Below are positions 27,252 to 34,306 of a DNA stretch of 34,479 bases, one piece after another. A program made the position numbers and the translations under genes. Under the pieces are notes generated by a model, which saw only the letters and a list, made by a program, of their open reading frames with translations, had not been told where the DNA came from and searched no databases. The stretch spans positions 1-34,479 of the forward strand of contig JAQBRG010000004.1 in NCBI GenBank assembly GCA_028286615.1. Reading direction: 5' to 3'. The first letter of the stretch is position 1. Each line of letters opens with the position of its first letter. This DNA comes from Parcubacteria group bacterium. GTDB lineage: Bacteria; Patescibacteriota; Minisyncoccia; Phycocordibacterales; Phycocordibacteraceae.

Positions 27252-28898
27252 TTACATCCTCTCGGGTGTGGGTATCCCAAGCAAACGAAGTCCGTTTGTC
27301 ATTGTGTTAACAAACGCTTCTGCGAGTCGAAGCTTGTATGTTTCATGATCGCCTCCAATTACGCGTTCCTGTGCGTAGAAAGAGTTCCATTCGCTCGCAA
27401 GCTGTGTGAGGTACTGAGCAATAACATGTGGCGCGCTAAGTGCTTCTGCTTTAGCAATAATTCCTGGGAAGCGAGTTATGAGTCTCTCAATGTCGTATGG
27501 AGTTGCCGGAGTACTTTCATCCTTAGACTCAGGTTCTTTTGCAAGAACTGCCTTTGCACGAACGAGGGCATACTGAAGATATGGTCCTGAATCTCCTTCT
27601 AGAGAAAGAGATTTCTCAAAATCAAAAATTATATCTGAGCCAGCTGATTGTTTAAGTATTGAGTATTTAATTGCTCCCATAGCAACTTGCTCAGCAACAA
27701 GTGGGTCTTCGTTACGCTCTAGCGTCTTTTCAATAACATCCTTTATGAGTGAGGCGGCGGTAACAACGTTTCCTTCTCGAGAGGACATCTTTCCGCTTGA
27801 TAGACGGAGGAAGCCGTGCGGAACGTGCGTAGTCTTTGCTGCGAGCGCTGGCGCGATATCTTCAAGCGCAGCAAGGAATACTTGGAAGTGCCCTATCTGC
27901 TCTGCTGCTGTAATAATTATAGAAACATCTGATGGCCAGCGTTCTTCTTTAAGGAATGCGAGTCCTATATCTTTTGCTTCGTATGTAGGAGTACCACGAG
28001 AGGTTATGAACACGAGCGTATGCAGGCCTTTATTCTCTCCTTTATAGATAATTGCTCCTTCGCTCTCTTCAAAGATTCCCTTTGCAAGGCCTTCGCGTAC
28101 TTTTTCAGTACCGATGCCAGCAGTCTCGCTTTCGAAGAACAGGTAATCAAAATGCGTATCAAGAAGTCTGTAGAGATCTTTGAAGGCATCTATAGAGACA
28201 TCGCGTCCCTTGCGCCACAGCTCCATGAGTTCGTGGTCTGTGCCTTCGTATATGGCAGTGTTAAGTGCGTCTATTTCTGCTTTTATCTTTTCAGACTCTT
28301 CGTATGCACGAGAACCGTGCGCATACGCCTTTCCTATTTCTTCAGCTGTTGCTGGTTCAGATATGCCAGCATCTCGAAGTCCCCACAAGGCTTTGGCCAC
28401 ATGCGGACCCACATCGCCTCCGTATGAGTCGCGGCACACATTGGCTCCCTGGTATTCAGTTATGCGTGCAAGAGATTCTCCAATGATGGTGCTCATCAAG
28501 TGACCGATGTGCATTTCTTTAAACGCGTTCGTGTTTGAGAACTCAATGATTACTCGCTTGCCTTCGTGCAGAGTTCCCTTTCCCCATCCTTCTACATCTA
28601 ATACAGCTCGTTCAATTACTTCTGTAATTGCATGGGGCGCGAGCGTTATGTTAACGAACCCAGGACCAGCGGGCGTAACTGAGGTTGCGCTGTCTCCTAG
28701 AGTTTCTTTTATGCGCGCGGCTAAATCTTCCGCTAACTCTCGAGGATTCTTTCCAAGTTGTTTAGCAGCTGCCATAGCAGCATTCGTAGCGAAGTCTCCG
28801 TGTACCAACTCTCCTGGCCACTCAACAACAAAGGGTGCCTCGCCTGCTCCCAGGTCTTCGAGGGCCTTTTGTACTGCTTCACGAATCTGTCTCTCCAT
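27252..28898 (-). CDS. argS: arginine--tRNA ligase
   Basis: GDFATN, GPGFVN, MHIGHL, KMSSREG, GDSGPYLQYA. Confidence 0.98.
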   Translation of the reverse strand: MERQIREAVQKALEDLGAGEAPFVVEWPGELVHGDFATNAAMAAAKQLGKNPRELAEDLAARIKETLGDSATSVTPAGPGFVNITLAPHAITEVIERAVLDVEGWGKGTLHEGKRVIIEFSNTNAFKEMHIGHLMSTIIGESLARITEYQGANVCRDSYGGDVGPHVAKALWGLRDAGISEPATAEEIGKAYAHGSRAYEESEKIKAEIDALNTAIYEGTDHELMELWRKGRDVSIDAFKDLYRLLDTHFDYLFFESETAGIGTEKVREGLAKGIFEESEGAIIYKGENKGLHTLVFITSRGTPTYEAKDIGLAFLKEERWPSDVSIIITAAEQIGHFQVFLAALEDIAPALAAKTTHVPHGFLRLSSGKMSSREGNVVTAASLIKDVIEKTLERNEDPLVAEQVAMGAIKYSILKQSAGSDIIFDFEKSLSLEGDSGPYLQYALVRAKAVLAKEPESKDESTPATPYDIERLITRFPGIIAKAEALSAPHVIAQYLTQLASEWNSFYAQERVIGGDHETYKLRLAEAFVNTMTNGLRLLGIPTPERM

Positions 28899-28916
28899 GG
28901 GGCGAGTGTAGCAAGA

Positions 28917-28946
28917 AAACCCGCCACCTCGAAGGGTGGCGGGTTT
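28917..28946. terminator. intrinsic terminator
   Basis: AAACCCGCCACC-tcgaag-GGTGGCGGGTTT. Confidence 0.85.
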
Positions 28947-28955
28947 ATCTTCTAA

Positions 28956-29057
28956 CTACATATTCTGAGCAAAGGCGAACATGAGGCTTCCGGCGATAAC
29001 AATTCCGACCGCCATCACGACCGCTGATTCAAGTGCTGCTTGTGCAAGTTTGGTCAT
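28956..29057 (-). CDS. 33-aa small membrane protein
   Basis: MTKLAQAALESAVVMAVGIVIAGSLMFAFAQNM; single TM; flanked by terminators. Confidence 0.55.
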   Translation of the reverse strand: MTKLAQAALESAVVMAVGIVIAGSLMFAFAQNM

Positions 29058-29146
29058 ACGCGAGAAGTGAGCTGATAGTGACTGTCCCAAATAATATACG
29101 AATAGATACATGAGGAGTCTGTGAGCGTATGAGAATGGAAACAATA

Positions 29147-29170
29147 AAGGGCGGTCAGTTGACCGCCCTT
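29147..29170. terminator. terminator hairpin
   Basis: AAGGGCGGTCA-gt-TGACCGCCCTT. Confidence 0.75.
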
Positions 29171-29173
29171 AGG

Positions 29174-29506
29174 CTACCAAGAACGAAGTTCACTATGTTT
29201 ATTACAAGGAACAACATACCCGCTAAAGCCCGTCTCCCTCTTCCATTCCTGTAAAAGATAGGGGTGCACATCTTTTTTAGACACAGGCACATGTACATCA
29301 CAGCACGGGCAAAGTATATAAGCGAAATAGTATTTCATGCCTTTGTAACCACAATCTTTTACCCATTTTCGTAACTGAATGTCTGAACGCTGCACTTGCA
29401 ACTTAGCGCCACACCCTCGACCAAGAATGCTAGTTGTACACAACAACTCGATCGTCCATGACTCCGGAATTTCTGTAGGAATTACACCTACGTTGATTAA
29501 CTTCAT
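29174..29506 (-). CDS. Cys-rich hypothetical protein (putative zinc ribbon)
   Basis: C..GCGA.L.V...D....CPCC pattern; ATGA overlap with the upstream gene. Confidence 0.65.
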   Translation of the reverse strand: MKLINVGVIPTEIPESWTIELLCTTSILGRGCGAKLQVQRSDIQLRKWVKDCGYKGMKYYFAYILCPCCDVHVPVSKKDVHPYLLQEWKRETGFSGYVVPCNKHSELRSW

Positions 29507-29730
29507 TTCTTTTCTCCAAACATGATTGCCATGGCAGCCCGAAGACCGCCTCGCTTATACGCTTCGTCTGCTTTAACTAGAATCGCCTTACCTTCTGAAC
29601 CTTCTCTCCAAGCGTGCGTGCGTGCCTGTACTCTTTGTAGGATTGCCTCAGCTTTTAATGAGACAGCAGGAAGTGTATCCAACGTATAGGTTCCTGGAGG
29701 AATGGGAGGTCTTTCGCGATCTTCATCCAT
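29503..29730 (-). CDS. hypothetical protein (75 aa) directly downstream of the SAM-I riboswitch
   Basis: AAAGGAG SD before MDEDRE; translationally coupled to the next gene. Confidence 0.6.
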   Translation of the reverse strand: MDEDRERPPIPPGTYTLDTLPAVSLKAEAILQRVQARTHAWREGSEGKAILVKADEAYKRGGLRAAMAIMFGEKK

Positions 29731-29753
29731 ACTTAGCTCCTTTGCCATAGAAA

Positions 29754-29792
29754 GAACAAAACGGCCACTCCGAAGAGGTGGCCGTTTTGTTC
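29754..29792 (-). terminator. riboswitch expression-platform terminator
   Basis: GAACAAAACGGCCAC...GTGGCCGTTTTGTTC followed by TTTCT. Confidence 0.85.
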
Positions 29793-29799
29793 GGTTTTT

Positions 29800-29897
29800 A
29801 CATCTTCCCCGGAGGGCTGGAATTCGCACCTTACCGATTGGCAGGTTGCGGATAGAGTATTGGGCCAGAACCCTTTGCACCTCTATGCTCTTGATGT
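29800..29897 (-). ncRNA. SAM-I family riboswitch aptamer (variant P2)
   Basis: ACAUCAAGAG...AGGGUUCUGGCCCAAU...GCAACCUGCC..GGUAAGGUGCGAAUUCCAG.CCC..GGGGAAGAUGU: P1 ACAUC/GAUGU, CUGG/CCAG pseudoknot, P3 GCAACC/GGUGC. Confidence 0.85.
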
Positions 29898-30326
29898 CTT
29901 GTCTGGAGTTAGTGTATCACGTAATTGCTTAGCACGTTTAGCACCCAACAAAACACTGTAGTTAGGGTGGTTCTTAAAATCCTTGAGATCCCAGACTATT
30001 GGATATCCAACTTCCTTTGATAGATGAATTACTTTGTCAGAACCGATATACACCCCCATGTGCGCACCATAGGATTCTTCTTTGCTATTAAAGAACAGAA
30101 TATCCAAAGGTTCGAGGACCTCTACCCTTCGTGTATAAGTCTCATCTTCCCAAAGATTACTTGAGCGCAGATCTGGCACTTTGTATCCAAAATATTTGAG
30201 AAGTTCGTATGCAAAGTACTGGCAGTTAGCTCCTTTCTCTAATCCTTCACAGTTTCCACTGCCAGGATACCGAGACCCGTCGTAGAAAGAATTGAAGAAG
30301 TGTGCCGGGATGCAGAGGGTATCCAT
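29883..30326 (-). CDS. NlpC/P60-like cysteine hydrolase
   Basis: ANCQYF, LDILFF, HMGVYIG, VIHLS. Confidence 0.75.
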   Translation of the reverse strand: MDTLCIPAHFFNSFYDGSRYPGSGNCEGLEKGANCQYFAYELLKYFGYKVPDLRSSNLWEDETYTRRVEVLEPLDILFFNSKEESYGAHMGVYIGSDKVIHLSKEVGYPIVWDLKDFKNHPNYSVLLGAKRAKQLRDTLTPDKTSRA

Positions 30327-30332
30327 GAGGGC

Positions 30333-30371
30333 ATGGTATCAAATTACCAAGGTTTGGGACGATGTTGGAAC
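30333..30371 (-). repeat. cassette-junction repeat copy A
   Basis: TGGGACGATGTTGGAAC (30355-30371) plus ATGGTATCAAATT (30333-30345). Confidence 0.85.
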
Positions 30372-31010
30372 CTATTTTTGCCGCACAGCAAGTATGTTCT
30401 TTCCTGATTCGTTCGGAAAAGCCCACGCTCGCTCAAACTCATCCATTGATACACGTTGATTTTCAGCTGGGGGTAATCCCGGATTGTGTAGGAGCAAAGT
30501 TTCGTCTTCATGTCCCCAAACCACTACCGAGTGTGGCAAATATCCTTCGACATCCTTCAATCTCGCGGAATTAATATTACAAATCACTAAATAACCATCA
30601 TCTATAAACTTCTTTAGGTCACTCAGGTCCGGTATCCTCACCCGAACATCCACATACTTCAAAAGCTTTTTGCTCAATTTCTGTTCCTGCTCCAGACTTG
30701 TGTGCTTGTCTTGTGCCTCGGCAATTTCATTCCCGAACATTTCTTGCAGATAGCCTTTCCCCTCCAGGGAAAACTTCTCATAGTCAAAGAGTTCAATATC
30801 TACCACTTCATATCCACTCTCTGAAAGCCAGATCATAGCAGCAATAGGCCACGTCCACTGCCCCTCCACCTTCGCCGTTATACGCTCCAGTTCCTTCCAA
30901 GAATAATCCTTTTCGCGGTTAAAGAATTTCAAGACCATCCTCAGGGCAGCCTGGAAACAATGAGTATTGTCTTCTGTGTTTGCGTAAAAGGGTACCTGCG
31001 AATCTTTCAT
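30372..31010 (-). CDS. peptidase C39-like papain-fold protein
   Basis: VPFYAN, HCFQAALRMVL, HSVVVWG, LHNPG. Confidence 0.8.
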   Translation of the reverse strand: MKDSQVPFYANTEDNTHCFQAALRMVLKFFNREKDYSWKELERITAKVEGQWTWPIAAMIWLSESGYEVVDIELFDYEKFSLEGKGYLQEMFGNEIAEAQDKHTSLEQEQKLSKKLLKYVDVRVRIPDLSDLKKFIDDGYLVICNINSARLKDVEGYLPHSVVVWGHEDETLLLHNPGLPPAENQRVSMDEFERAWAFPNESGKNILAVRQK

Positions 31011-31016
31011 ACTTAA

Positions 31017-31056
31017 ATGGTACCAAATTGCTGGCAATCTGGGACGATGTTGGAAC
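31017..31056 (-). repeat. cassette-junction repeat copy B
   Basis: TGGGACGATGTTGGAAC (31040-31056) plus ATGGTACCAAATT (31017-31029). Confidence 0.85.
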
Positions 31057-31168
31057 TCTTGTGTCGCTAGCCAGGTCCTCACCCCGTATTGGGTACTAGA
31101 GTTTTGGATGTAGAACGCGCGGCCACTTGGACCGCGCGATTGTTAAAAGAGGTGTATTCGCTTCAGAG

Positions 31169-31354
31169 TTATCCGGTGTAGCGAACTCGTTCGGCAACAG
31201 CCTCCATCACCTCAGATGGTCGGAATTGGCGTTCGATGATCGGGAGATCAGGATTAAGTACACCGGATGACAATTGGCTCGACGCTCTGACGACAGCTGC
31301 GGCTGCGTCAAGATTGTCTGCCAGACGTTGGCTGTCCATACTTTTCAGGTCCAT
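31169..31354 (-). CDS. small hypothetical protein (61 aa)
   Basis: GAGGAA SD-like sequence; GC hairpin downstream (about 31116-31138). Confidence 0.4.
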   Translation of the reverse strand: MDLKSMDSQRLADNLDAAAAVVRASSQLSSGVLNPDLPIIERQFRPSEVMEAVAERVRYTG

Positions 31355-31477
31355 GCTAGTTCCTCACTTACGTCCAGGTTGGTCTGGGTGGAAACTCTAG
31401 CAAATAACTTCAGTTCCTTCAATCTACGGCCTTTGGTGTAAAGAATGCTTGCGATATGAGACGACGTTAGAACCTTT

Positions 31478-31906
31478 CTAACTATAGAGCTGGAACTCCT
31501 CCGTAAGGATTCTAATCGCTTCGGTCGCCCCATACAGAGTGGCGCCCAGATATTCAAAATCGCTTTCTTGTTTTCCAGCCATAGAATCATTGAGTTTATC
31601 GTCGTGTCGGGTATCGAGCATTTCTCTAGGAAAATCAACAAGTAGGAGATCTTCCATAGTTCTGGCTTTCCCTATTAGGTCAGCGATTTTTGCAGAGCTC
31701 CCTTTCTTTATTACAAAACCAAACCGCGCAATGCCGGCATGCTTAATACCAGATCCGTCTTTAAGTACGCTGCGTCCCATAAGTTCGCCGTCCTTATTTG
31801 CACCAATGGCTATTGCCATGTGTCCAAGCACATTCATTGCTTGCCATGGCTCTAATGAATCAGAAATGATAGCAATAATTTTTCTGGCCTTAAAGTCGTA
31901 CGTCAT
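31478..31906 (-). CDS. DUF2000-like protein (PTH2 fold)
   Basis: KIIAII...LEPWQAMNVLGHMAIAIG, D.SG..H.GI, VDFPREM, YLG..LYG....I..LT. Confidence 0.75.
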   Translation of the reverse strand: MTYDFKARKIIAIISDSLEPWQAMNVLGHMAIAIGANKDGELMGRSVLKDGSGIKHAGIARFGFVIKKGSSAKIADLIGKARTMEDLLLVDFPREMLDTRHDDKLNDSMAGKQESDFEYLGATLYGATEAIRILTEEFQLYS

Positions 31907-31926
31907 CTACAGATAGTATCAAAGAT

Positions 31927-31950
31927 TGCTGGGAGACTAGGGATCGAACT
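31927..31950 (-). pseudogene. 3' fragment of a tRNA-Gln (att-like remnant)
   Basis: AGTTCGATCCCTAGTCTCCCAGCA = T-loop, 3' T-stem, acceptor strand ending A72, G73 discriminator; no 5' half. Confidence 0.7.
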
Positions 31951-31959
31951 CCCTCAGAC

Positions 31960-33225
31960 CTATGCAAAACTCTCAGGAATAGGATGTGCTGCTGCTAGCT
32001 CCTGTACTTTCAAATGCGCAGCTTTAACCGTTGCATCGTCTCGCTTCGTTAGGATTTCAATCATGAGCTCTGCAACCTGCACGCATTCTTCTTTCTTAAA
32101 TCCACGCGTTGTCATAGCAGGTGTACCAAAACGAATACCAGAAGGATCCATTGGCTTACGCGTATCGTCAGCAATTGAGTTCTTGTTAAGCGTTATGCCA
32201 GCTTCGTCGAGAAGCTTTTCTGCTTCCCCTCCTGAGATACCAAACGAAGTCCATGCGTCAGCAAGGATGAGATGGTTGTCCGTGCCACCAGTTAGAAGAC
32301 GTGCACCGTGTGCCTTGAACACTTCGGCCATAGCAGCAGCGTTCGCAACAGTCTGGTGTGCATAATCTTTGAACGAAGGGCGGAGTGCTTCTCCAAACGA
32401 AATTGCTTTAGCAGCAATCTGGTGCATGTGCGGACCGCCCTGAAGTCCAGGGAAGAGTGCCTTGTCTATCTTCTTCGCAACTTCTTCGCTCTCTCGCGTA
32501 AGGATCATGCCGCCACGTGGACCTCGAAGCGTCTTGTGCGTGGTTGTGGTCATAACATCGAAGCCGTGATCAAAGGGGCTCTTCGCTGCGCCTCCTGCGA
32601 TGAGTCCTGCAATGTGCGCTACGTCAGCAACGGCATATGCACCAACCTCTTTAGCGATATCTGAGATCTTCTGCCACTCAAGTTCCCTGGGGTATGCAGA
32701 GAAGCCAGCCAGAATAACCTTCGGCTTTTCTTTAAGGGCCGTCTCTCGAAGCGCGTCGTAGTCTATCTCCCCTGTCTCAACATCTTTCATCTTGTACCTG
32801 ATGAAGTTGAAGATCTTGCTGATGTACGTAACTGGGTGTCCGTGCGTAAGATGTCCTCCATGCGAGAGGTCCATACCTAGAATGGTGTCTCCTGGCTCCA
32901 TAAGTGCCATATAGAGCGCGATGTTTGCGTTTGCGCCTCCTAGTGGCTGTACGTTTGCGTGCGATGCGTTAAAGAGCTTTTTCGCGCGATCTTGAGCGAT
33001 GCGTTCAACCTGGTCTGTGTATTCCTGTCCTCCGTAATACCGCTTGCCTGGGTACCCTTCTGAGTACTTGTTCGTAAGCGCACTGGCCATTGCTTCACGT
33101 ACTGCGCTTGATACGTAGTTCTCTGATGGGATAAGCTCAAGTCCTTCCGCTTGGCGCTTTTCTTCTCCCGTAAGAGTTGCAAACACCTCTGCGTCCTCTT
33201 TCTGTACGTGTGGGTACCAATCCAT
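31960..33225 (-). CDS. glyA: serine hydroxymethyltransferase
   Basis: LIPSENY, NKYSEGYPGKRYYGG, GGHLTHG, TTTTHKTLRGPRGG. Confidence 0.98.
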   Translation of the reverse strand: MDWYPHVQKEDAEVFATLTGEEKRQAEGLELIPSENYVSSAVREAMASALTNKYSEGYPGKRYYGGQEYTDQVERIAQDRAKKLFNASHANVQPLGGANANIALYMALMEPGDTILGMDLSHGGHLTHGHPVTYISKIFNFIRYKMKDVETGEIDYDALRETALKEKPKVILAGFSAYPRELEWQKISDIAKEVGAYAVADVAHIAGLIAGGAAKSPFDHGFDVMTTTTHKTLRGPRGGMILTRESEEVAKKIDKALFPGLQGGPHMHQIAAKAISFGEALRPSFKDYAHQTVANAAAMAEVFKAHGARLLTGGTDNHLILADAWTSFGISGGEAEKLLDEAGITLNKNSIADDTRKPMDPSGIRFGTPAMTTRGFKKEECVQVAELMIEILTKRDDATVKAAHLKVQELAAAHPIPESFA

Positions 33226-33286
33226 AATTCCGTAATCGTACCTTGTCCACGCCTTCATTCCAACCACATGCTCTATAGTGCTCAAT

Positions 33287-34306
33287 ATGCCTTTTAAACA
33301 CATGCTCAAGCCCGTACGAAAGATAGGACCGCTTTTTGAATCAAACCGCTTTAAAGACGTTAAGGATCCTTGCGTCGCTTTTGACGGGACAACCTGGCAT
33401 ATATATGGAACTGCTGGAGATACCTTTCCTGAAGAATGGGAGATTCTCCACGCAACCGCGCCTGCTATTGAGGGGCCTTGGACTGAGTTAGGTGTTGTAA
33501 ACCTGCGAGGTGTAGAGGGTCCTCACGTATGCGCTCCTACCGTTGTATATGACCCCGAGGACAAACTTTTTCACATGGCAGTGCAGAAAGATTTCATGGA
33601 TGTTGGCGGAGGTCTCGCCTATCTCGTATCAGCAGACGGGCATACGTTTACAAAGATGCGTACTCTCATGCGTCCCACAAACGAGAGCGAGGCAGGCTTG
33701 TATGATCCTCAACTTAGTACGATTAAAGGTAAGAAGTACTTGGTGTATTCCGGCATACCAGAGATGCGAGCGTACGACACACGTCCGCGCCCTGTCCCGC
33801 AACCTGACGTGTACCTCGCAAAGAGCAGTACTGATTATTGGTCTGGGCACTGGAAGCGCATGAAAGCTATTCTTAGGCACGAAGATATTGCGTGGCATCA
33901 CAACCATCGCGAACACCCAGATTACGAATGGGGTATCGAGGGCCCTGAAGTTCGCGAACTTCCTGGCGGAAAGATTCTTCTTAATGCCACCTGCTTCATT
34001 GAGGAAGGAAGACGAGGCACGCGCCAGCGAGTCTTTTTCGCTATGGCTGACGATGTGAAGGGTCCATACACAACGATTGGTCCTGTGCTTCCCACCGAAG
34101 GCTTAGAGGAATGGGAGAACGGAGAGAACGGTCACGCAAGCACGTGGATTATGGGAGACGAGTTATATCTTTTCTATCAAGCACGTCCACAGACTGTGGC
34201 TGAACCGATAGAGGCAAATGCTTGGAAATACGGTATCGCGATCTTTAAGATTGAAGATCTTTTGAAAGAATTCGAAGCGGTTAAAGCAGAAACAATTACC
34301 CAGTAG
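33287..34306 (+). CDS. five-bladed beta-propeller glycoside hydrolase (GH43/GH32-like)
   Basis: KDPCV, CAPTV, YDPQL, EGPEV, NGHAS...LFYQA blade motifs with Asp/Asp/Glu; no signal peptide. Confidence 0.75.
   Translation: MPFKHMLKPVRKIGPLFESNRFKDVKDPCVAFDGTTWHIYGTAGDTFPEEWEILHATAPAIEGPWTELGVVNLRGVEGPHVCAPTVVYDPEDKLFHMAVQKDFMDVGGGLAYLVSADGHTFTKMRTLMRPTNESEAGLYDPQLSTIKGKKYLVYSGIPEMRAYDTRPRPVPQPDVYLAKSSTDYWSGHWKRMKAILRHEDIAWHHNHREHPDYEWGIEGPEVRELPGGKILLNATCFIEEGRRGTRQRVFFAMADDVKGPYTTIGPVLPTEGLEEWENGENGHASTWIMGDELYLFYQARPQTVAEPIEANAWKYGIAIFKIEDLLKEFEAVKAETITQ

Follow-up and report, generated by a model that had tools for sequence, protein, structure and literature searches.

Rows of mostly single-gene units, parted by a conserved ~35-nt site and opened by tRNA-Gln-type sequences, suggest integron-like gene collecting in a Parcubacteria group bacterium

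Several described systems hold accessory genes in rows. Integrons, and the clusters of attC sites lacking integron-integrases (CALINs), are rows of mostly single, unrelated accessory genes of diverse kinds, with a recombination-type site at the end of each unit, in which open reading frames (ORFs) often end, and with one distinct entry site; CALIN rows have no linked integrase. Staphylococcal cassette chromosome (SCC) elements stand in tandem behind the 3' end of a housekeeping gene (rlmH), are parted by short direct repeats and include recombinase-less units that are moved in trans by the Ccr large serine recombinases. The pdif modules of Acinetobacter plasmids are small gene modules that lie between short conserved sites, namely 28-bp XerC/XerD dyads whose orientation alternates; their movement is attributed to the housekeeping Xer enzymes, with no need for a dedicated one. 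Tycheposons of Prochlorococcus have a tRNA seed, enter next to a tRNA, are separated by partial tRNAs and occur in a streamlined host with few classical mobile elements; they carry their own integrase and replication genes, at one or two per genome (Hackl et al., bioRxiv 10.1101/2020.12.28.424599). In the candidate phyla radiation (CPR), up to 13% of genome length is reported to have been gained horizontally (PMC12455944), and the main text of that study contains none of the words tRNA, cassette, integrase or recombinase. A search of the literature on integrons, cassettes and genomic islands of CPR/Patescibacteria found no description of rows like those reported here. The subject of this work is a 34,479-nt stretch (hereafter the window; contig JAQBRG010000004.1) of the 756,930-bp genome of a Parcubacteria group bacterium (GCA_028286615.1, 94.7% completeness; G000 in locus names), in which accessory genes follow glyA in a row, parted by copies of a ~35-nt site that we named S_rep and opened by a tRNA-Gln-type sequence, the head. 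The stretch from head to S_rep, or from one S_rep to the next, is called a unit. Rather probably, the genome holds at least six rows of mobile cassettes, most of them with a single gene, and the row in the window belongs to these.

A sequence-only reading of the window had noticed that two junctions, A and B, carry an identical 17-mer (GTTCCAACATCGTCCCA). The match is exact at both (Table 1), the other sequence details given in that reading proved correct as well, and a third, decayed copy, overlooked in that reading, lies closer to glyA. The three matches in the window compare with 0.11 expected, and none of 100 shuffles reached three. In the whole genome, 30 copies (5 forward and 25 reverse) were found with up to three mismatches, against two for the reversed control. 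They form rows of 11 copies (C5:54088-59650; C3, C5, C6 and C8 are contigs of G000), 8 copies (C8:123811-127705) and, in the window, 3 copies, with spacings of 300-1200 nt, as well as pairs (C3:112356/113363 and C6:73337/73784) and single copies. These numbers are lower bounds: C3 ends just past an S_rep (113360-113431), C5 opens within one (1-22), and the unit after C3:113363 begins like the unit after C5:58010. Since the assembly breaks at rows, the true number of S_rep is higher. From 249 unique copies of this and other genomes the consensus A-N-AAAR-GTTCCAACATCGTCCCAGAC-N-GCCAGC-AA was obtained, with limits at -6 and +28 relative to the G of GTTCC; positions 0-16 had been selected by the search, and the remaining ones had not. 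S_rep sits between transcription units, and a TAA in its left edge is often the stop codon of the preceding gene.

The 173 unique units had a median length of 542 nt and were compact, intact transcription units without recombinase remnants; just three homologous pairs were found among them (tblastx, 1e-12). Pfam families in the units of G000 included NUDIX (two), glyoxalase, DUF218, serine hydrolase, MazG, diacylglycerol kinase, HAD (two), DUF6309, DUF2127, OmdA and others, and 16 of the 40 row ORFs tested had no Pfam match. This cargo (NUDIX, glyoxalase, HAD, MazG, DUF218, hydrolases and family-less ORFs) resembles that of known integron cassettes. The longest ORF ran forward in 103 units and reversed in 58, and the remaining 12 units lacked an ORF of 50 aa. 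Reversed units carried either a canonical -35/-10 promoter or a conserved 31-nt extended -10 module abutting the next S_rep (compared by eye). The orientation of S_rep was constant in the forward and in the reversed units; being independent of the enclosed gene, it is more in keeping with a DNA site than with an operator or an RNA tied to a gene.

Junction C had been taken for the 3' end of a tRNA-Gln, beginning 10 nt past the glyA stop and anchoring the row. It matches the resident tRNA-Gln(UUG) gene (C8:129716-129787) at 22 of 22 positions, from the T-loop to the discriminator plus C. When a 20-nt tRNA-Gln piece was searched in G000 with up to four mismatches, seven matches were obtained, namely the two real tRNA-Gln genes and five fragments. 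All six rows of G000 whose start lies on a contig open with such a head (the real tRNA-Gln(UUG) gene once, a fragment five times), always upstream of the S_rep copies and co-oriented with them, and the tRNA-Gln(CUG) gene was the sole head-type match without a row. As every row start carries a tRNA-Gln-type head, junction C is no accident, and the proposed anchor is how such rows regularly begin. The genes that precede heads include glyA, ychF and an M23 peptidase gene, among others, and some heads are themselves tRNA-Gln genes. The fragments are exact or near-exact copies of the tRNA-Gln gene from its T-loop to its 3' end. The fragment at C5:60000 abuts the stop of the M23 peptidase gene, an arrangement that is kept in two relatives (G020 and Bin_32_2_1).

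The same polarity was observed outside this genome. In the flanks of the public S_rep loci, 22 of the 30 tRNA genes were tRNA-Gln, all of them upstream and co-oriented. Among 43 unique heads (13 real genes and 30 fragments), 40 had a co-oriented S_rep within 3 kb downstream, one had an S_rep upstream and none had an S_rep on the opposite strand; at least 1 kb of upstream sequence was available for 33 of the 43, and the loci had been picked because they contain S_rep, irrespective of where it stands with respect to a head. Two parts are common to head and S_rep, GGTTC on the left and CC(T/C)AG(T/A)CT(C/G)CCAGCAAT on the right (by eye). Compared with the 3' part of tRNA-Gln, S_rep shares GGTTC and 11 of 14 nt at the 3' end, and its middle is different and 5 nt longer (by eye). 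The T-arm dyad of the head fragments had a mean stem of 3.4 bp versus 2.6 ± 0.19 bp in shuffled upstream sequence, a weak signal that is largely inherited from the tRNA.

Comparison of close relatives revealed that the content between the repeats is fully different while the surroundings are kept, as is proper to a cassette boundary, the role first assigned to the repeat. Between G020 and Bin_32_2_1 the flanks are 91-94% identical and the rows differ: the tRNA-Gln locus holds four units in one genome and one in the other, and the M23-peptidase locus holds five units with six S_rep in G020 and a single 115-nt non-coding unit with one S_rep in Bin_32_2_1. At both loci, homology extends through the head and the AAT behind it, breaks off there and returns 4-5 nt before the GTTCC of the last S_rep. 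One HAD unit is common to G000 and the relative G021 (78.5% amino-acid identity); its neighbours differ on both sides, and the DNA match consists exactly of S_rep, gene and S_rep, ending at the outer edges of the two sites. A simple local duplication does not fit, since the repeat occurs about 30 times in the genome, is present in many others and encloses content that is not fixed among relatives.

Judging from alignments with relatives, the row of the window is itself an insertion into the stretch that separates glyA from argS. In G020 and G034, TCACnGA... begins no more than 2 nt past the stop codon of glyA, and a small membrane ORF, a terminator and argS come next. The same flank sequence starts in G000 near 29124, 2.8 kb further on, and the 2.8-kb block from 31959 to ~29126 is missing in both relatives, its right limit (~29125) being given by the alignment. 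At 0.456, the GC content of the block is below that of the remaining window (0.495). The idea that the block is flanked by a GTTC target duplication was considered and rejected, as the G020/G034 alignment puts the right limit at ~29125, not at the GTTC at 29183. The glyA 3' end aligned in 78 of 120 other genomes of the genus, with no alignment past query position 376 (the head occupies 382-406), in a test that would miss a head behind a diverged spacer. In another relative, G018, an 84-aa ORF lies behind glyA (L027:2078-2332; L numbers denote individual loci compared). As this spot holds an ORF (G018), nothing (G020 and G034) or a row (G000), it is a hot spot even without S_rep.

The site is widespread in the family of this bacterium. 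A 20-mer of the repeat, searched with up to two mismatches, was found in 55 of 151 family genomes (45/113, 7/33 and 2/4 by genus), with no control matches and with up to 32 copies per genome; a 29-mer, with up to three mismatches, was found in 5 of an initial draw of 36 further species of the genus and in none of 24 genomes from other families of the order. Exact copies were present in at least 144 stretches of a public genome collection. The first 80 loci listed included at least 46 other CPR assemblies (counted by eye), labelled as Paceibacterota/Parcubacteria, Nomurabacteria, Wolfebacteria, Kaiserbacteria, Berkelbacteria, Patescibacteria and Saccharibacteria (third-party annotation records). 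In the soil run that is the probable source of G000, the summed contig depth was 212-318 over the repeat versus 13.7 elsewhere, which indicates that many other contigs of the soil community carry the repeat. Phages or plasmids as carriers of the site were rejected: all 33 matches in IMG/VR and 11 non-CPR assemblies corresponded to one GC-rich coding sequence of alphaproteobacterial type, in which the match stops at 20 nt and is therefore unrelated to S_rep. This 20-mer lies within a conserved, GC-rich coding sequence of Rhodobacterales and other alphaproteobacteria (L036, L051, L059, L065, L066, L077, L090, L093, L102, L109 and L179-L211) and is most likely a chance match whose count was raised by a prophage-type gene that is widespread.

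The sequence-only reading had suggested a recombinase acting in trans, which fits the rows: no recombinase was found adjacent to the heads or in any row examined, the 144 loci of the public scan included. As that reading had also stated, the window holds no integrase, and a tRNA gene search of the window found no intact tRNA gene; the sole Phage_integrase-family match of G000 (C6:102968-103489) lies outside it. The genome has a single tyrosine recombinase, of XerA type (NF040815, 256.6 bits versus a cut-off of 220), which scored 134.3 (cut-off 265) and 79.6 (cut-off 435) against the integron integrase models TIGR02249 and NF011946, respectively. No match to Resolvase, Y1_Tnp (HUH), IS110 DEDD or rve was obtained in G000 at its 94.7% completeness. 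Eleven carriers were examined (G000, the five relatives first found with the site and five array-rich genomes): ten had one Xer-type tyrosine recombinase and one had two, the second match being weaker, none of them inside a row, and the single XerA-type enzyme was the only recombinase present in all eleven. Clustering of 1194 locus ORFs in search of a recurrent hidden recombinase returned only housekeeping flanks (dnaX, M10 peptidase and FAD protein). In G139, a head, two S_rep and a 109-aa membrane ORF stand between xth and the 3' end of the xerA-type gene (L213:4479-5170 = L054:1696-2406). For G171 and G094, where xth neighbours the xerA-type gene (immediately so in G171), the distance to a row is 4-7 kb, and the xerA-type gene of G000 has no row nearby. 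As a single independent case, this closeness is only a hint.

A reverse transcriptase was rejected as the row enzyme, as the one RVT_1 match of the genome lies 11 kb from the C5 row with nothing linking them. The protein (405 aa; G000:C5:42048-43265, equal to L212:3048-4265, minus strand) is retron-like (NF038233, 103 bits, below the cut-off), and at its C-terminus there is a match to the zinc-finger region with which DnaG primase begins (TIGR01391, positions 4-96).

Taken together, it is fairly likely that the rows arise by site-specific cassette capture, with the head as an attI-like and S_rep as an attC-like site, through a recombinase acting in trans. A circular unit, consisting of a gene and an S_rep, would recombine with the head by means of this enzyme, and the crossover would fall within the part common to both sites (CCAGCAAT). 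A crossover at this point would leave the head intact, even when it is a real tRNA gene, and the S_rep would land behind the new unit. The pattern seen is the one expected in this case: heads stay by their conserved upstream gene, the tRNA-Gln genes are intact and S_rep follows the units. The crossover is placed on the right because one in the GGTTC on the left would put S_rep first and the tRNA-type end on the far side, which was not seen. Repeated capture would stack the units, and recombination between sites would remove or move them.

Several observations weigh against this interpretation. The crossover point is deduced solely from the standing of heads and S_reps, and a test for S_rep variants that change together with the unit on their left or right, which might have placed it, gave no signal (three homologous pairs). 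No dedicated recombinase was found in G000, and no recombination product, circle or population variant was seen in the contig-level run; nine candidate joints of excised or circular units in this run, the only one found with the site, had sides of 22-26 nt and turned out to be cross-matches of the repeat, which are evidence neither way. In addition, S_rep lacks both a fold and, by eye, dyad symmetry, an unusual state for the core site of a serine or tyrosine recombinase: folding of both strands at the three junctions A, B and C and in one extended copy gave z values of -0.31 to +0.91, and 72-164 of 200 shuffles folded as well as these sequences. Finally, the inserted block of the window has no S_rep at its far end, where the nhmmer profile recognised none, and the empty sites of the relatives have no head, so the arrival of row and head together is not accounted for. 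The comparative evidence nevertheless supports a cassette reading, and the rows look like an undescribed, integron-like form of gene collecting; the cassette capture originally proposed is in part supported. A more far-reaching version, in which the rows would be the CPR analogue of the integron and the main trade route of accessory genes, with a portable tRNA-Gln-mimic entry site that could be set behind any gene, S_rep-tagged cassettes and a housekeeping XerA-type or other enzyme in place of a dedicated integrase, we regard as doubtful.

Three other explanations were weighed. The rows might be additive tRNA-seeded islands of the tycheposon or SCC type, in which integrase-bearing elements, for example with a large serine recombinase (LSR), entered serially at tRNA-Gln and left partial-tRNA scars, the present units being their decayed remains or recombinase-less satellites. 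The heads are indeed partial tRNAs, rows begin at tRNA-Gln, and the tycheposon model has elements parted only by partial tRNA, with degenerate remnants (10.1101/2020.12.28.424599). LSR genes are also common, occurring in 101 of the 151 family genomes, and in relatives they end in or against the 3' ends of tRNA-Trp (G020) and tRNA-Ile (G034), convergently, or, once, overlap the ychF 5' end next to a P4-type primase gene (L175:5148-6670, L177:4482-6055 and L174:3994-6679 together); the others lie away from any head. Their place at tRNA 3' ends points to serine-recombinase elements targeting tRNA ends in this family, and action of an LSR in trans from transient elements is possible. However, S_rep does not track LSR, being present in 35 of 101 LSR-positive and in 20 of 50 LSR-negative genomes; some LSR genes may be missing from incomplete MAGs. 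Among 23 array-rich genomes (at least five copies), 15 have an LSR, which is the base rate, and 8 have none (cross-tabulated by hand; related genomes are not independent); one of the latter has 32 copies at 99% completeness. No LSR was found by tblastn with five LSR queries in the flanks of the 144 S_rep loci (80 of them with 2-kb flanks), none of five LSR genes of relatives abuts tRNA-Gln or a head, and the nearest S_rep is at least 14 kb from the LSR where both coordinates are listed. Moreover, the units are compact and intact, without recombinase remnants at a median of 542 nt, and S_rep is not the 3' end of the resident tRNA, from which its longer, different middle sets it apart. An island of this kind therefore seems unlikely.

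Homologous recombination, in which S_rep would be a portable 35-bp homology for RecA-type swapping after DNA uptake, like the minimal mobile elements of competent bacteria, appears less likely still. It would agree with a site conserved as sequence and not as structure, with the lack of any recombinase linked to the rows and with the replacement of units between fixed flanks, and CPR bacteria generally carry competence genes. It leaves unexplained the tRNA-Gln-type heads, which share only ~8-14 nt with S_rep, the strict polarity, and the seeding of a row in the glyA-argS interval, which holds no such site in relatives; besides, a homology of 35 bp barely reaches the length at which recombination of this type becomes efficient. 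We consider it very improbable that S_rep is a cis-acting regulatory or RNA element (an operator, insulator or processing signal) or a miniature selfish repeat of variable regions. Its very strong conservation across distant CPR lineages, its constant position between transcription units and the stop codon that its left edge often supplies would suit such a role. Its orientation, on the contrary, is fixed to the row and not to the neighbouring gene (58 of 161 ORF-bearing units being reversed), S_rep has no fold, and Rfam returned nothing on the window region beyond a riboswitch and one weak sRNA match (E 0.2). The copies also rise with the inserted genes at the same locus in close relatives (one versus six), and a selfish repeat inserting alone would split conserved gene neighbours, which was not seen. 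With no fold, no dyad (by eye) and a copy number that follows the inserted genes, S_rep does not behave as a miniature inverted-repeat transposable element or a repetitive extragenic palindromic sequence.

Compared with the described systems, the rows share with integrons and CALINs all the features given at the outset, and like integrons they are arrays of unrelated, mostly single-gene units whose content differs between relatives. The system cannot be classed as an integron, as it lacks both IntI and hairpins of the attC type, S_rep being unfolded and conserved in sequence, attC in structure; in place of an attI beside intI the head mimics tRNA-Gln, with no Pc platform; and there are at least six rows per 0.76-Mb genome, whose units have their own promoters and are reversed in a third of cases. 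The tRNA seed, the entry next to a tRNA, separators that resemble part of a tRNA and the streamlined host recall tycheposons, from which the rows differ in that the units here are integrase-less, single-gene and ~0.5 kb long, with up to 32 sites per genome, separated by a dedicated S_rep unlike the resident tRNA end, and in many rows, with heads also away from tRNA genes. As in SCC, elements in tandem follow a housekeeping gene at its 3' end, with short direct repeats between them; SCC elements, in contrast, are many kb long, use one site and depend on Ccr, whereas the present units are single genes with which serine recombinases do not co-occur. Small modules between short conserved sites that need no dedicated enzyme recall pdif modules, but S_rep is asymmetric, direct and tRNA-like, and its carriers have a single XerA-type enzyme.

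The features of the window row, all on the minus strand, are collected in Table 1, together with the head fragments of the genome. The listed glyA ORF begins with TTG, and its real start is probably further in; its stop is at 31962-31960. The degenerate S_rep is counted as a decayed copy in view of its weak nhmmer profile score (E 0.82). The stop of the C39-like gene (TAG, 30374-30372) lies directly before the core of repeat A, just as described earlier, and the 3' part of this S_rep has diverged (AACCTTGGTAAT). Unit 2 also has a terminator-like hairpin and, directly ahead of S_rep B, a decayed version of the promoter module of reversed genes (compared by eye). Within the remainder of the block, the SAM-I riboswitch-like element (29797-29900, minus strand; E 1.2e-05, its 35.8 bits falling short of the 44.4 gathering score) has an unpaired P1 stem and shares its 5' end with the final codons of the NlpC/P60 gene. 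It is followed by a terminator hairpin (~29752-29795) and by two small ORFs (~29503-29748 and ~29174-29506) without a Pfam family and a further terminator. Other contigs of the soil run match 29751-29905 at ~90-93% identity.

Table 1. Features of the row in the window and head fragments of the genome
Feature	Position	Strand	Description
glyA, serine hydroxymethyltransferase	31960..33309	-	From the ORF list; conserved gene upstream of the row
Head (junction C)	31925..31949	-	22-nt exact copy of tRNA-Gln(UUG) from T-loop to 3' end (31949-31928), then AAT
Unit 1, DUF2000 gene, 142 aa	31478..31906	-	Pfam PF09391, 1.1e-31
Degenerate S_rep	31445..31479	-	Core 31457-31473, 3 mismatches; 4 nt past the DUF2000 stop
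Unit 2, 61-aa ORF (31169-31354)	31063..31444	-	No Pfam match; ~0.4 kb
S_rep B	31028..31062	-	Complete 35-nt site; core 31040-31056; nhmmer E 3.2e-09
Unit 3, Peptidase_C39-like gene, 212 aa	30372..31010	-	Pfam 8.3e-07 / 2.6e-05
S_rep A	30343..30377	-	Exact 17-nt core 30355-30371; nhmmer E 5.3e-06
Unit 4, first gene, NlpC/P60 family, 147 aa	29883..30326	-	PF00877, 3.8e-05
Remainder of inserted block	29126..29900	-	Riboswitch-like element, two small ORFs, terminators
Conserved downstream flank	27252..29125	-	Small membrane ORF (ending ...MFAFAQNM), terminator, argS
Head fragments in G000	C3:111695, C5:60000, C6:132385, C6:74689, window junction C		20-25 nt

The accessory genes of the row had been described as sharing one start layout, with leaderless promoters built into the repeat. 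The layout TGnTAC(C/T)AT-N6-ATG was indeed present at the three genes (ATGs at 31906, 31010 and 30326), as the extended -10 boxes TGATACTAT (31921-31913) for the DUF2000 gene, TGGTACCAT (31025-31017) for the C39-like gene and TGATACCAT (30341-30333) for the NlpC/P60 gene, each 6 nt ahead of the ATG; the further element (A/G)G(C/T)AAT turned out to be the 3' end of the repeat itself. The promoters do not belong to the repeat. The motif TGnTAnnnT-N5-8-ATG had 148 matches in G000, 117 of them followed by an ORF of at least 60 aa, versus 74 and 25 for a control motif, and argS (start at 28898 in the window) has the same leaderless extended -10 layout. Being genome-wide, this layout is not a built-in feature of S_rep. 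Leaderless starts are a habit of this organism, and the units carry normal promoters at variable distance after S_rep.

Roughly one in three of the genomes sampled from one family carries S_rep, in as many as 32 copies per 0.7 Mb. The genomes of CPR bacteria are very small and hold few recognisable mobile elements, and a conserved, polar, tRNA-derived cassette site would give gene acquisition in these organisms a concrete and testable route. If S_rep does serve cassette capture, the integron principle would have arisen a second time, independently and on another type of site, and S_rep together with its head would provide a sequence tag with which the accessory genes of uncultivated bacteria may be mined from metagenomes.

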